IMG/VR virus record: IMGVR_UViG_2703718832_000004
Length of the DNA stretch: 34,056 nt
Strand: one strand, 5' to 3'
DNA from: a virus
Lineage: Duplodnaviria > Heunggongvirae > Uroviricota > Caudoviricetes
Of this stretch, positions 11,976 through 31,399 are shown piece after piece (positions within the stretch are counted from its first letter, which is position 1; each line of letters starts with the position of its first letter). The translations under genes and the position numbers were made by a program. Under the pieces are notes generated by a model, which did not search any database, had not been told where the DNA came from, and saw only the letters and a program-made list of their open reading frames with translations.

Positions 11976-11999
11976 GCGCTTTAAAATCCGTATCCCGCC
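11976..11999 (+). promoter_or_regulatory. conserved late-operon motif copy 1 (GCGCTTTAAAATCCGTATCCCGCC) upstream of holin
   Basis: Seen directly; shares the core CTTTAAWATCSG with the sites at 25557..25582 and 31374..31399; core starts 61 nt before the holin ATG. Confidence 0.5.
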
Positions 12000-12039
12000 A
12001 CATTTGTGATGCTGTCTCCCACACAACAAGGAGACACTC

Positions 12040-12390
12040 ATGAAAAACCTGAAAAAATTCATTCCCCCTGTTAAAAAGCCCCGCCTCAGCGGCTGGCTGC
12101 TGACCTCTGTGCTGTTGCTCGGCACCATCGGTCTGGTCTCCCCCCAGCAGCTGCCGGTGGTTGTCTACAAGCTGTCGCTCATCACGCTGGCGGCTGTGCT
12201 GGGCTACTGGCTTGACCGTTCGCTTTTCCCCAAAGCCCGCCCCGGTCAGTACCTGAAGCACGATGACAGGCTGATGGCTGATGGTCGCTTCCCCGTCCAG
12301 ACTGGCCTTCACCTGGTCTTTTCCGCTGCGCTAATCCGTCGTGCGCTGATTGTTGCCGCAGTCTGTCTGGCCGTGGCTACGGGGCTGTGA
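12040..12390 (+). CDS. putative holin (three hydrophobic segments)
   Basis: 116 aa with three predicted transmembrane stretches, strong RBS AAGGAGA, immediately upstream of the endolysin. Confidence 0.5.
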   Translation: MKNLKKFIPPVKKPRLSGWLLTSVLLLGTIGLVSPQQLPVVVYKLSLITLAAVLGYWLDRSLFPKARPGQYLKHDDRLMADGRFPVQTGLHLVFSAALIRRALIVAAVCLAVATGL

Positions 12391-12392
12391 CC

Positions 12393-13121
12393 ATGAACGG
12401 GCCTCAAATCACTCTCATCATCCTGCTTGCCTTTGGTCTGGGCGTAACTGCCATCAAGCATGGCGAGCCACGCAACGATAAATACAGCTTCTGGTGGCAG
12501 CTCGCTGGCAACCTGGTTATTGCCTGGCTGCTCTGGTGTGGCGGTTTCTTCAGTCAGGCCCGCGCAGCCCAGCCGCCACAGTCCGCTCTGCAGTATCGCG
12601 ACGATGTGATCCGTAATGCCCGGCTTGAATGGGGACTGTCTGCGCCGGTGGCCGATTTCGCCGCGCAGCTGCATCAGGAAAGCGGCTGGCGACCAGATGC
12701 GGTCTCGCCGGTTGGCGCTCAGGGGCTGGCGCAGTTTATGCCCGCCACCGCTGACTGGATAAGTCAGCTGATGCCGGGGCTGAACAGCCGTGAGCCGTTT
12801 AATCCGGCATGGGCCATCCGGGCGCTGGTCAGCTATGACCGCTGGCTGTGGCAGCGCGTCAGCGCCGCCAACGGCTGCGAACGTATGGCCATGACGCTGT
12901 CGGGCTATAACGGCGGTCTGGGCTGGGTACAGCGGGACAAACGGCTGGCCTCTCAGCAGGGGCTGGACAGCACCCGCTGGTTTGGACATGTCGCCACGGT
13001 GAATGCCGGGCGCAGTGCTGCCAACTGGCGGGAGAACCGCCACTATCCGCAGCGCATCCTGCGGGAGCTGGCTCCGCGCTATCTCACATGGGGAGGCAGC
13101 AGCTGTGTGGAACCTGGTTAA
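12393..13121 (+). CDS. endolysin, soluble lytic transglycosylase (SLT) domain with N-terminal membrane/signal-anchor segment
   Basis: SLT catalytic motif AQLHQESGWRPDAVSPVGAQGLAQFMPATA; N-terminal hydrophobic segments suggest a signal-anchor-release type endolysin; listed ORF begins on GTG 12387, ATG 12393 preferred. Confidence 0.8.
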   Translation: MNGPQITLIILLAFGLGVTAIKHGEPRNDKYSFWWQLAGNLVIAWLLWCGGFFSQARAAQPPQSALQYRDDVIRNARLEWGLSAPVADFAAQLHQESGWRPDAVSPVGAQGLAQFMPATADWISQLMPGLNSREPFNPAWAIRALVSYDRWLWQRVSAANGCERMAMTLSGYNGGLGWVQRDKRLASQQGLDSTRWFGHVATVNAGRSAANWRENRHYPQRILRELAPRYLTWGGSSCVEPG

Positions 13122-13755
13122 AAGATTACCGTGGCGCGGCATGGTGCTGATGCTTGTTCTGGTGGCTGTTCTTTATGGACTGAACCGCTGGGGCTATCAC
13201 GACGGTTCTGAGGACGCAAAACGTGACGGTGACGCAGCGCTCAGTCGGCTGCAGTCAGCGTTTGATACCTACAAAACCGAACAGACAACACTTGAGAACG
13301 CAGCGCTGCGGGCCTGGGCAAAGCGTTATCAGGAACAGGTTGCCGCAGGCCATCAGGCCGAAGCCAGCTACCTTGAGCAGATTGCTCAGCTAGAGAGCCA
13401 GAACAAACAACTACAGGGGCAAATTAACGATGTCACACAGCGCTGGATTGATGAAAAAGGTAAGAGCCATCCCATTGAGTGCGTGTTTACTCGCGGTTTC
13501 GTGCGCCAGTACAACGCCGCGCTCGGATATGACAACGCATCCGTCGACGCCGGTCATTCAGACGCAACTGCCGCCGCTGGCACCGGCACTCGCGCAGCGT
13601 CCGGGCAACCTGCAGCCGCTGACGCCTGGCTACGCGACTCAGGCGTCTCCCAGCGTGACGTCCTCGCCAACATCATCGACAACGCGAAGCAGTGTCGCAT
13701 CTGGCGCGGCCAGATAAACGGGCTGCTGGACGAACGGGAAGGATTACAGAAATGA
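13105..13755 (+). CDS. Rz-like i-spanin (N-terminal TM, coiled-coil periplasmic domain)
   Basis: Start uncertain (GTG 13105 with GGGGAGG RBS, or ATG 13141); N-terminal TM VLMLVLVAVLYGL followed by a Gln/Ala-rich coiled coil; directly follows the endolysin. Confidence 0.65.
   Translation: MWNLVKRLPWRGMVLMLVLVAVLYGLNRWGYHDGSEDAKRDGDAALSRLQSAFDTYKTEQTTLENAALRAWAKRYQEQVAAGHQAEASYLEQIAQLESQNKQLQGQINDVTQRWIDEKGKSHPIECVFTRGFVRQYNAALGYDNASVDAGHSDATAAAGTGTRAASGQPAAADAWLRDSGVSQRDVLANIIDNAKQCRIWRGQINGLLDEREGLQK
13451..13717 (+). CDS. Rz1-like o-spanin lipoprotein, fully embedded in the Rz gene in the +1 frame
   Basis: Alternate-frame ORF inside Rz: MKKVRAIPLSACLLAVSC lipoprotein signal followed by a Pro/Ser/Thr-rich mature region, the classic embedded Rz/Rz1 arrangement. 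Confidence 0.6.
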   Translation: MKKVRAIPLSACLLAVSCASTTPRSDMTTHPSTPVIQTQLPPLAPALAQRPGNLQPLTPGYATQASPSVTSSPTSSTTRSSVASGAAR

Positions 13756-29482: not shown

Positions 29483-29694
29483 TGTTTCTTGAACATGTCA
29501 CCCGTGACGGAGAGCGCTGGGATTCTCTGGCATGGCAGTACTACGGCGACCCGCTGGGCTATCCCCGGATAATTGCCGCCAATCCGCACGTGGCCATTAC
29601 GCCGGTGCTGCCCTCCGGGTTGTTGTTACTGATCCCGGTGATCGAGGCTGAAGAAGCCACCACAGAAGAGGATATTGCCCCATGGCTGAGATAA
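29482..29694 (+). CDS. tail protein X-like (small LysM-like tail protein)
   Basis: About 70 aa; pattern WDSLAWQYYGDPLGYPRIIAANPHV resembles P2 gpX; ATG 29482 overlaps the upstream stop. Confidence 0.55.
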   Translation: MFLEHVTRDGERWDSLAWQYYGDPLGYPRIIAANPHVAITPVLPSGLLLLIPVIEAEEATTEEDIAPWLR

Positions 29695-30851
29695 ACAGCA
29701 CGGCACAGGCCGCATCAGCGTTAACCGGCCTCAGCGATGTTCTGAGTCCGGTGTTCACGCTGTGGTATCTGCAGAAGAACATCACCACCGATATCGCCCC
29801 CTATGTCACCCGCGTGACCTACAGCGATAACATCAAAAGCGAGTCCGATACCATTGAGGTGGAGCTGGACGACACCGATGGCCGCTGGCTGGATAAGTGG
29901 TATCCGGGCAAGGGGGACACGCTGACGCTGAAAATGGGCTATCAGGGCGAGAAGCTGCTGTCCTGCGGTACGTTCTCGATAGACGAGATCGAGGTGAGTT
30001 CGCCCGCGTCCGTTGTCGCTATCCGGGGTGTGGCCACTTCGGTCAACAACGCTCTGCGGACTAAATCCAGTCGTGGTTTCGAGAGCACCACGCTGGCGGC
30101 CATCGCAGGGCGGATTGCCAAAAAGCATCAGCTGAAGCTGGTTGGTAGTATTGAGTCCATCAAAATTGACCGGGTGACCCAGTACGCTGAAACGGACGTG
30201 GGCTTCCTGCGTCGGCTGGCCAGCGAGTATGGCTATGCCGTAAAAGTTGTCAGCGACCAGCTGATTTTCTCTCATCTGGCCACGCTGCGCGGTCAGGAGC
30301 CGGTAAAACAGTTGAAGCCACAGGATGTGGCCAGTTTTTCCCTGCGTGACACCATCAACCGCGTCTACAAATCCGCAAAGGTAAAACACCAGAAGAGTAG
30401 CGATAAAAAGCTGATCGTCTACGAAGCTGATGGCGGCACCAGCGAAAGCGACAAACAAACCAAAGGCGGTAAGGTCACCAGTGCCGACTCACTGAAGGTC
30501 AACAGCCGCGTCAGTGACCCGGACAGCGCCCGGATTAAAGCAGATTCGGCGCTGGCCAGACATAACGAATACCAGCAGAACGGCTCCCTGACGCTGATGG
30601 GGACGCCCCAGTTGACTGCAGGCAACAAAATTGAACTGGTGGGCTTTGGTCAGTTATCCGGGCCATGGCTGATAACCACTGCCCGCCATGCATTTGACCG
30701 TAACAGCGGCTACATCACCGAACTGGAGGTGGCACGAGGGCCGGTCACGCAGGGCAAGGCGAAGAAAGGTAAAAAGACCGGCAAAACCCAGACGCTGACC
30801 GTCTATAAACCGGACGGCAGCACCTCCACGGTAATAAAGGAGAAGAAATAA
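29682..30851 (+). CDS. baseplate hub / late control gene D-like tail protein (P2 gpD, Mu P equivalent)
   Basis: 389 aa, size and position typical of gpD family. Confidence 0.65.
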   Translation: MAEINSTAQAASALTGLSDVLSPVFTLWYLQKNITTDIAPYVTRVTYSDNIKSESDTIEVELDDTDGRWLDKWYPGKGDTLTLKMGYQGEKLLSCGTFSIDEIEVSSPASVVAIRGVATSVNNALRTKSSRGFESTTLAAIAGRIAKKHQLKLVGSIESIKIDRVTQYAETDVGFLRRLASEYGYAVKVVSDQLIFSHLATLRGQEPVKQLKPQDVASFSLRDTINRVYKSAKVKHQKSSDKKLIVYEADGGTSESDKQTKGGKVTSADSLKVNSRVSDPDSARIKADSALARHNEYQQNGSLTLMGTPQLTAGNKIELVGFGQLSGPWLITTARHAFDRNSGYITELEVARGPVTQGKAKKGKKTGKTQTLTVYKPDGSTSTVIKEKK

Positions 30852-31363
30852 TGGCATGTGTCACCCGTCAGGTCGGTACAGTCAGCGCCGTCGATGCCGA
30901 CAAGGTTCAGGCCCGAGTTCGTTTGCCGGAATGCGATAACCTGCGCACTAACTGGCTTAACGTGCTGCAGCGCAATACCCAAGATAACAAGGATTACTGG
31001 CTCCCTGACGTGGGGGAGCAGGTTGAGGTGCTGCTCGATGCCAACGGCGAGGATGGTGTCATTCTGGGCGCGGTGTACTCAGACGTCGATAAACCACCGT
31101 TCAGCGACAAAAATGTCCGGGGCACAAAATACGCTGATGGTGCTGAGTTCAGCTATAACCGCGCGACCCATACGCTGACGGTTAAAGGCGGTATCGAGCA
31201 TGTGGTGATCGAGGTTGCGGTGGGTATCAGCCTGAAGGGGAAAACCATTGATTTGACCGCTGACACCACCACGGTGAACGGCGACCTTGAAATCAACGGC
31301 AATGCCCACTCGACAGGCAGCATGCTCTCTGACGGCCAGAACTCCAATCATCACTCCCACTGA
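30851..31363 (+). CDS. baseplate spike protein (P2 gpV-like)
   Basis: 170 aa; size and position typical of gpV. Confidence 0.65.
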   Translation: MACVTRQVGTVSAVDADKVQARVRLPECDNLRTNWLNVLQRNTQDNKDYWLPDVGEQVEVLLDANGEDGVILGAVYSDVDKPPFSDKNVRGTKYADGAEFSYNRATHTLTVKGGIEHVVIEVAVGISLKGKTIDLTADTTTVNGDLEINGNAHSTGSMLSDGQNSNHHSH

Positions 31364-31373
31364 CCTTCTTAAA

Positions 31374-31399
31374 CGCCTTTAATATCGGCGTTCCCGCAC
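31374..31399 (+). promoter_or_regulatory. conserved late-operon motif copy 3 (CGCCTTTAATATCGGCGTTCCCGCAC) upstream of gpW-like gene
   Basis: Core CTTTAATATCGG at 31377; followed by hairpin CACAGGGGC-AATACT-GCCCCC (31398..31417) whose stem matches the terminator stem at 25528. Confidence 0.5.

Follow-up and report, generated by a model that had tools for sequence, protein, structure and literature searches.

We report that a short motif recurring ahead of several late transcription units in a 34,056-nucleotide (nt) stretch of viral DNA (IMG/VR record IMGVR_UViG_2703718832_000004; Caudoviricetes), which in its full length is hereafter called the window, is very probably a late-promoter element, namely a Mor-type half-site acting through the phage's own homologue of Mor, the activator of the Pm promoter of phage Mu. 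Its sequence marks the window as an enterobacterial transposable prophage of the BcepMu-like (Bcepmuvirus) type, with a DNA identity of 95% to Klebsiella phage KP12 and of 85% to Escherichia phage PhiKM, and a distant DNA similarity to the Burkholderia phages BcepMu and phiE255. The identification of the motif is supported by five lines of evidence: a dyad placed 23 nt from a −10 element that has no −35 partner, a match to the Mor site of Mu Pm, conservation in orthologous upstream regions, the presence of one Mor-family gene per genome, and co-variation between the recognition helix of the activator and the sequence of the box. The first-pass annotation of the window had proposed just such an element, recognized by the Mor/C-family protein encoded at 1505-1894, and sequence, geometry, conservation and co-variation all speak for that proposal.

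Anatomy and conservation of the proposed late promoters

The motif, the 12-mer CTTTAAWATCSG, occurs on the + strand at 11979-11990, 25561-25572 and 31377-31388, and lies 61, 62 and 41 nt upstream of the ATG codons at 12040, 25623 and 31418, just as had been reported. Pfam also upholds the gene identities first assigned, with matches to the holin (PF13272), the tail assembly chaperone (PF10109), the gpW-like protein (GPW_gp25, PF04965) and Mor (PF08765). The window has no further match to the 12-mer at one mismatch or fewer; 0.35 would be expected, and 2 of 100 shuffled sequences reach three. The 12-mer consists of the last two bases of the centre of a dyad, its promoter-proximal half-site and the flank; as read from the sequence, the motif is thus the promoter-proximal half-site (TTAAW) with adjoining flank, at the −35 position, of an imperfect dyad of 16 base pairs (bp). 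In the complete module a dyad of 4-6-4 form (NTAA-N6-TTAA) is followed by a short flank that is conserved (WAKMC), and the TTAA stands 23 nt from the −10-like hexamer (nAnnnT); the 16-bp box can be described as 5-bp inverted repeats around a G/C-rich 6-bp centre.

Four modules with the 23-nt spacer are present in the window, one for each noncoding gap of the late region. P1 (11970-12013, + strand) precedes the holin gene and is the equivalent of Plys of Mu; its box, TATAA-cgcgct-TTAAA, lies at 11970-11985 (dyad from 11971), its flank extends to 11990, its −10 hexamer, GATGCT (12008-12013), follows a TGt, and its predicted start is at 12020-12021. In relatives the P1 box and hexamer are conserved and the spacer is variable. 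P4 (19352-19395, + strand, dyad from 19353), the equivalent of PI of Mu, precedes the head protease/scaffold gene, the true ATG of which is at 19426, as annotated in KP12; it combines the box TCTAA-agcaga-TTAAA with the hexamer CAGACT (19390-19395) and a predicted start at 19402-19403. This fourth site was found because the word TAAAGCCGATTAAAAGACC precedes both the holin gene and the head protease gene in BcepMu. P2 (25552-25595, + strand, dyad from 25553) stands before the unit of the tail assembly chaperone and tape-measure genes, with the box CTTAA-tcccct-TTAAT, the hexamer CATACT (25590-25595) and a predicted start at 25602-25603. P3 (31368-31411, + strand, dyad from 31369) stands before the baseplate gene W (gpW), with the box CTTAA-acgcct-TTAAT, the hexamer AATACT (31406-31411) and a predicted start at A31418. 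The three copies originally described are therefore real, but the consensus drawn from them was too narrow, and overlooked both the fourth site (19353-19395) and a fifth on the minus strand (11047-11004). Likewise, a constant spacing does exist, but it runs from the motif to the −10 hexamer and not from the motif to the ATG. The CCCGC that had been noted beside two copies is present (11994-11998 and 31393-31397), but we give it no weight and treat it as chance, because its offsets differ and the spacer is hypervariable in relatives; Plys and PI of Mu also have a word in common, CCCGCACC (PMC4461284, Table 1).

A scan with the sigma-70 consensus detected a −35/−10 pair, and hence a full promoter, at none of the sites in the window. 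If transcription starts 7 or 8 nt past the hexamer, as predicted, the geometry places the centre of the dyad at −42.5 or −43.5. Such a position would match that in Pm of Mu, in which the Mor site comprises two 5-bp inverted repeats around a G/C-rich hexamer, spanning the 16 bp from −51 to −36 and centred at −43.5 (PMC4390567, PMC4287176). The published Pm bases −57 (G) and −54 (A) (PMC4390567, PMC4287176) fix the Pm start at L164 725, and the Mor site is therefore AGTAA-AGCCGG-TTAAT within GTAAAGCCGGTTAA, followed by the same 23 nt from TTAA to the hexamer, which in Pm is TATCCT. We had also considered placing the Mor site on a perfect terminator-like hairpin, AAAGCCGG-ttaat-CCGGCTTT, with the start at L164 731, and rejected this, as −57G and −54A fit only 725. 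The family consensus of the boxes, GTAAAGCcGATTAAa, is almost the Mor site itself; both systems further share a −10 without a −35 and an activator of the PF08765 family.

The composite pattern NTAA-N6-TTAA-N23-nAnnnT occurs four times in the window, always on the + strand, whereas shuffled sequences contain 0.11 on average and 2 at most, none of 300 reaching four. In a matrix built from beta-proteobacterial relatives only, P4, P1 and P2 are the top three + strand hits of the window, with P4 first at 23.1 bits, and when the composite pattern was applied to the examined stretch of Mu, Pm was its sole perfect + strand match. For the wider comparison two sets of loci were used, 80 anchored on the large terminase (TerL) with one genome per species, and 160 from viral contigs anchored on gpW. 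The exact composite is found in 329 of 381 orthologous upstream regions, as against 0.011 per 190 nt over all loci with the true sites included. This conservation spans gamma- and beta-proteobacterial relatives, with the spacing invariant and the spacer hypervariable. In the TerL-anchored loci, + strand sites fall almost exclusively at about 7.0, 14.4 and 20.3-20.7 kb, that is, before the holin, protease and chaperone genes. At positions left free by the match, 86 non-redundant modules show conservation of the flanking bases that follow TTAA (A at +2 in 77 modules) and of the G/C-rich centre, whereas the other 17 positions of the spacer have a mean of 0.16 bits; such a pattern is the footprint that would be expected of a protein-binding site and a −10 element whose helical phase is constant.

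Besides these four, a minus-strand site at 11048-11004 is a probable fifth Mor-type promoter, reading toward the Dam-like methylase gene (10854-10084; PF02086). Its box, GTAA-attgcg-TTAA (11047-11034), is separated by a 24-nt spacer from the −10 CATCCT (11009-11004), and its predicted start, at about 10997 on the minus strand, is followed by a conserved leader hairpin (10989-10958). The conserved methylase leader (10958-10997, minus strand) begins with GAAAGAAC and forms an 11-bp hairpin from GACCAGCCCGG and CCGGGCTGGTC. The dyad and hexamer of this site are conserved, with a variable spacer, in KP12 and in loci L006, L007, L009, L014, L017 and L021, and the orthologous site of PhiKM matches the exact module. 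In a number of related loci (L005, L008, L010, L012, L013, L016, L019-L027 and L036, at about 7.04-7.18 kb) the dyad of the holin promoter is palindromic, and the opposite strand has another −10-like hexamer at a distance of 23-24 nt, which in L005, L008, L010, L012 and L013 leads into the methylase leader; in many relatives one box would thus serve two divergent promoters. The minus side of P1 in the window (11942-11984) has a −10-like CAGAAT at 11947-11942, and a DUF2441 gene (11098-11664) separates P1 from the methylase unit.

One more dyad, GTAA-gacagc-TTAA, is found on the minus strand at 25648-25661, within the 5' end of the chaperone gene, with a CATGAT 22 nt beyond it; its PhiKM counterpart is ATAA-gacaat-TTAA. 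We take it for a coding-driven chance match, as Phe-Lys and Ser-Tyr codons probably account for the dyad.

The Mor homologue and its recognition helix

The candidate activator gene lies on the minus strand at 1505-1894 and encodes 129 amino acids from Met11 of a 139-residue open reading frame (1505-1924). Its product matches the Mor family with an E-value of 1.3e-42, shares 30% identity with Mor and 35% with C of Mu, and finds both the Mor structure 1RR7 (E 1.6e-8) and the C structure 9L0X in PDB. It stands with GemA at the end of the early genes, which include the transposase gene (5837-7606) and read leftward from 9063, whereas the cI-like repressor gene (9147-9557) and the late genes read rightward. 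Bases 1 to about 1375 of the window are host DNA, as the YkuD-type L,D-transpeptidase encoded on the minus strand at 1-741 indicates, and the left end of the prophage must accordingly lie between about 1375 and 1505. Searches with tblastn recovered a single Mor/C-family locus in each of the window, KP12, PhiKM and the complete BcepMu genome; being the sole member of its family in all four, it would make the cascade two-tiered.

The recognition helix of the activator is GVSLQWVY, and BcepMu gp01, although only 53% identical overall, has exactly the same helix-turn-helix, ELARKFGVSLQWVY. Among the loci with a Mor-family gene, TTAA boxes are present in all 10 that have a helix of the form (V/I)S(L/V/I)QW(V/I)Y and in none of the 9 with other helices. 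Locus L067 has both the helix of the TTAA-box type and TTAA boxes, although its activator is only 33% identical overall. Terminase similarity fails to explain this split, since L062 (60%) has the box and L046 (71%) lacks it. Furthermore, four lineages without the TTAA box have a recurring box of their own, with the same layout and spacing to the −10 hexamer: TTCC-N6-GGAA (TTCC-N6-GGAAaatacat) at 7190 and 14994 of L035, TTAm-N6-GTAA (TTAm-N6-GTAAatga) at 5836 and 14868 of L063, TGAAG..CTTCA (cTGAAGyTCTTCATCTTAT) at 6210 and 14569 of L069, and TGAA-N6-CCTC (cacTGAAccccttCCTCtaa) at 7349 and 16971 of L073. These are the convincing results of a generic search for alternative boxes in 20 loci without the TTAA box, the output of which was otherwise mostly noise. 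Wherever the Mor gene of an alternative-box lineage could be read, its recognition helix differs. Among the computational evidence, this co-variation of helix and box speaks most strongly for the Mor homologue as the cognate factor. At several of the alternative-box sites an ATG lies 6-7 nt past the hexamer, and L073 has an inverted repeat around the hexamer.

In two beta-proteobacterial prophages, L028 (site at 6793) and L062 (site at 6998), the Mor-family gene is on the same strand as, and just upstream of, the late genes, and the stop codon of the activator gene is no more than a few bases from the start of the TTAA box, in the manner of Pm after mor in Mu. From this arrangement it follows that the head-to-head layout of the BcepMu type is unnecessary for the regulon.

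Of the other explanations of the dyad, the one that survives best, though it is improbable, holds that it is a true promoter-associated site bound by some protein other than the Mor homologue, such as a host nucleoid protein, GemA, an IclR-like or Ner-like early protein, or the cI-like repressor. The AT-rich half-sites do resemble many host-factor sites, and GemA (1891-2358) and several helix-turn-helix proteins are encoded close to the activator. Nevertheless, sequence and spacing are nearly identical to those of the footprinted Mor site of Mu Pm (PMC4390567), the presence and sequence of the box track the Mor helix across lineages, as those of a host-factor site would not, and the early control region (9063-9147), where operators for the repressor or Ner are expected, contains no dyad. 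A second alternative, raised in the first-pass annotation, is that the motif works in RNA, as a processing site or in translational coupling between late operons; read-through RNA would indeed include the motif, and conserved hairpins adjoin it. What is conserved is, however, a DNA dyad with invariant 4-bp AT half-sites, a variable centre and a fixed distance to the hexamer, irrespective of whether the leader is of 6 or 41 nt; a 4-bp A-U stem would be unstable, the use of the same box at divergent promoters on both strands in many relatives fits a symmetric DNA site, and no Rfam family reaches threshold anywhere in the window. For the motif, this suggestion is unsupported and very unlikely to be correct. 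As for chance recurrence of an AT-rich word in noncoding DNA, which could appeal to a consensus taken from the same data and to the 2 of 100 shuffles yielding three 12-mer matches at one mismatch, it is already refuted by the comparative data: four copies of the composite in none of the 300 shuffles, its presence in the 329 orthologous regions between unrelated spacers, and the recovery of the sites by a matrix from which the window and its close relatives were excluded. The Mor-type half-site thus remains our preferred identification of the motif.

Hairpins, leaders and the terminator

The first-pass annotation had pointed to a GC-rich hairpin next to each of the second and third copies and taken the two for the same element. 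Both hairpins exist (CAGGGGCttcgGCCCCT at 25530-25546, −11.8 kcal/mol, and GGGGCaatactGCCCC at 31401-31416, −12.0 kcal/mol), but their equation was wrong, one being an intrinsic terminator and the other a stem that brackets the −10 of the gpW promoter. The former (25531-25554, + strand) reads AGGGGC-ttcg-GCCCCT followed by TTCTTCTT, gives a terminator-like hit, and starts 6 nt past the stop codon at 25523-25525. Relatives have at this position a hairpin and a T-run with different stem sequences. Judged by these features, the hairpin beside copy 2 is the intrinsic terminator of the preceding unit, which extends from the protease to the tail tube. The gpW-promoter stem (31401-31420, + strand; z −3.0), of 5-6 bp with GGGGC/GCCCC arms, gave no terminator-like hit at 31401-31416, and is followed by CATGAAAACA without a T-run. 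Between the tail tube gene and the 93-residue gene that precedes the terminator, the window has an open reading frame of 97 residues (24961-25254), which, judged by annotated coordinates, is apparently absent from KP12 and PhiKM; the possibility that it is a paralogue of its neighbour (25244-25525) was rejected, as on comparison the two are not paralogous.

The ATG of gpW lies exactly 6 nt past the hexamer of P3 and has no Shine-Dalgarno sequence; no earlier in-frame start than 31418 is possible, and the resulting N-terminus is conserved with gp49 of BcepMu. Because of this 6-nt distance the transcript is predicted to start at the A of the AUG, and the gpW mRNA is accordingly predicted to be leaderless, beginning at A31418. 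The same distance is found at 25 of 28 non-redundant gpW promoters, in both clades, and at 9 of 11 protease promoters of the beta-proteobacterial clade. All promoters of this 6-nt type before gpW and the beta-clade protease use ATG, and the 6 nt contain no purine-rich stretch.

The remaining three + strand promoters have leaders, and each overlaps a predicted hairpin. That at P1 (12006-12041, + strand; −11.9 kcal/mol, z −2.1) has a 5' arm, GUGAUGCUGUCUCC, overlapping the −10 and discriminator, and a 3' arm covering the Shine-Dalgarno sequence (GGAGAC) and AUG of the holin gene; its 7 pairs are all preserved in 14 relatives, the only changes being wobble ones. At P4 (19394-19421, + strand; CUGUCCCCG / CGGGACAG; −13.1 kcal/mol, z −2.65) the 5' arm begins within the −10 hexamer and the 3' arm lies over the ribosome-binding region of the protease gene; RNAalifold predicts 8 pairs in 16 relatives, 3 of them with compensatory double changes. 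The P2 hairpin (25588-25627, + strand; −11.2 kcal/mol, z −3.4) pairs the −10 and discriminator (GACAU, UGCUCU) with the Shine-Dalgarno sequence (GGAGCA) and AUG of the chaperone gene. Over 41 non-redundant leadered promoters, the complementarity between −10/discriminator and Shine-Dalgarno/AUG has a mean z of −2.3, with 61% at p<=0.05 in the duplex test. At 44 promoters of the leaderless type the local hairpin likewise has a mean z of −2.3, and 48% are still at p<=0.05 when the upstream flank alone is shuffled; in many of these cases the AUG itself is paired.

Since the 5' arm ends at or before the predicted start, these promoter-overlapping hairpins would form only in read-through RNA, and we infer that it is there that they occlude the Shine-Dalgarno sequence or AUG. 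A competing explanation, which we consider possible but doubtful, is that they serve as 3'-end stabilizers or processing sites of the upstream transcripts, or else as a DNA-level barrier to melting until the activator acts. In favour of such roles, P4, P2 and P3 lie within the late region, where there is no apparent reason for insulation; moreover, GC-rich arms around the −10 could impede melting, and unwinding of the mom promoter is reported as part of the action of C of Mu (PMC4461284). Yet neither a stabilizer nor a barrier would require the specific complementarity of −10 to Shine-Dalgarno sequence seen at the 41 leadered promoters, or the pairing of the AUG in many leaderless cases, which would favour occlusion of translation starts in read-through RNA.

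Both parts of this arrangement have counterparts elsewhere. In the fold-back inhibition of the IS10 transposase, the promoter of the element itself is placed within or beyond the 5' arm of a hairpin that masks the ribosome-binding site, so that only incoming transcripts fold, and leaderless phage mRNAs such as that of lambda cI from PRM begin with the AUG and have no Shine-Dalgarno sequence. In contrast to IS10 and lambda cI, the arrangement in the window is predicted only, and recurs at several activator-dependent promoters of one phage; unlike lambda cI, the genes predicted to be leaderless here are late structural ones, namely gpW and, in beta-proteobacterial relatives, the head protease.

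A further strong hairpin upstream of P4 (19256-19291; −20.8 kcal/mol, z −3.5) holds the 16-mer TTTATAAAGGCTTTAC at 19271-19286. This 16-mer is kept, between unrelated flanks, in 40 loci of gamma- and beta-proteobacterial relatives, almost always at a distance of 47-103 nt upstream from the protease promoter. It belongs to the stretch that separates the G-like gene from the protease gene and that in Mu contains the strong gyrase site.

The proposed late cascade and its relation to other phages

By analogy with Mor at Pm, the Mor homologue, made at the end of the leftward early operon, would bind the dyads, each centred about 43 bp upstream of the transcript start, and recruit sigma-70 RNA polymerase to the −10 located 23 nt past the TTAA at promoters without a −35. 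Four rightward units would result: lysis, terminase and portal genes from P1; the head protease through the tail tube from P4, ending at the terminator at 25531; the tail chaperone, tape measure and baseplate hub from P2; and baseplate W onward from P3. The fifth promoter, with its 24-nt spacer, would drive the leftward methylase unit. The cascade would have two tiers (early genes and Mor, then late genes) as opposed to three in Mu. Transcripts begun at Mor-dependent promoters would be translatable, either through a free ribosome-binding site or as leaderless mRNAs, while RNA arriving from the repressor-side genes, from host promoters beyond the ends of a prophage inserted at random or from the late unit before would fold, so that the start of the first gene is masked. 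For its first gene to be translated efficiently, each unit would then have to be transcribed from its Mor-dependent promoter.

A number of points weigh against this reading. The hexamers are weak matches to TATAAT in which only A2 and T6 are constant, and our searches required both of these positions. The composite pattern is post hoc, having been refined after the data were viewed, and for that reason the beta-proteobacterial matrix and the match at Mu Pm were taken as two independent checks. The chaperone promoter of BcepMu itself has a degenerate dyad. The counts of helices and boxes ignore kinship, and may represent perhaps 3-4 independent lineages with the box. As the activator is only 30% identical to Mor of Mu, the near-identity of the window boxes and the Mor site could be partly coincidental. 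Binding, activation, start sites, leaderless translation and insulation are all deduced, the last of them solely from complementarity statistics. We therefore offer tentatively, and with a slight balance of doubt, the larger picture in which the late promoters of BcepMu-like and more distant Mu-like phages are combined transcription-translation switches, with obligately leaderless gpW and beta-clade protease mRNAs, a bidirectional box and a helix/box recognition code.

The closest comparisons are with Mu itself. The window boxes differ from Pm in that they precede late structural and lysis operons, whereas Pm precedes the middle operon encoding a second activator, and in number, with four or five copies in the window against one in Mu; the window activator, for its part, has SLQWVY in its helix where Mor has TFNTVY. 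In Mu the late operons are served by four C-dependent promoters, which have a −10 without a −35 and a TTAT-N5-6-ATAA dyad centred at −43.5 (PMC2582627, PMC12867686, PMC4461284); oligonucleotides in Table 1 of PMC4461284 give an ATAA-to-hexamer distance of 24 nt. The window thus resembles Mu in having four predicted late promoters, each with a −10, no −35 and a dyad that would be centred near −43.5, of which the first two stand before the lysis genes and the head protease gene. It probably also has a DNA-modification gene under the late activator, the Dam-like methylase gene with its fifth promoter, as a parallel to the C-dependent mom gene of Mu. The two differ in the box and in its distance, which in the window is 23 nt except at the methylase promoter (24 nt), and in the placement of the tail-gene promoters, because the tail module of the window is P2-like. 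No box of the Mu C type is present at the late promoters, and the sole match to TTAT-N6-ATAA in the window (TTATTCCTTGATAA, 747-760) lies in host DNA beside the YkuD gene and is probably due to chance.

The tail and baseplate genes downstream of the P2 and P3 promoters are of the type of phage P2 (gpE-like chaperone, gpV, gpW, gpJ and gpI). In phage P2, too, an activator-dependent sigma-70 promoter stands before each late operon; the late promoters of phages P2, 186 and P4 have the zinc-finger activators Ogr, Delta and B, and the P2-type box is TGT-N12-ACA, centred near −55. In the window TGT-N12-ACA has two matches, at 2546 and 29478, against 7.0 expected, and neither is upstream of a late unit; identification of the sites with either Ogr-type boxes of P2 or C-type boxes of Mu was accordingly rejected, both being absent from the sites.

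A Mor- or C-dependent promoter is a textbook element for Mu. Possibly new here are a cascade of two tiers, a box that would act in both directions, the prediction of leaderless late mRNAs and the anti-Shine-Dalgarno hairpins embedded in the promoters. No description of the late promoters of BcepMu-like phages was found in the literature searched, from which the original BcepMu paper (PMID 15184022) and the Mu promoter papers of 1989-1996 fell outside; it is possible that the BcepMu paper already notes these repeats.

The analysis yields a predicted map of transcription for the transposable prophages of this kind in Enterobacterales and Burkholderiales, a widespread group: four rightward late units and a leftward methylase unit would answer to one activator, and the Mu cascade would here take a simpler, two-tier form. 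The Mor site appears almost unchanged between Mu Pm and phages with a 30%-identical activator, while other lineages have swapped both helix and box; these natural helix/box pairs could be used together with the new structures of Mor and C transcription complexes (bioRxiv 10.1101/2025.05.02.651988) to derive rules of DNA reading. Finally, the leaderless late mRNAs and anti-Shine-Dalgarno hairpins, if true, would suggest how a prophage that inserts at random keeps its lysis and structural genes silent under read-through transcription.

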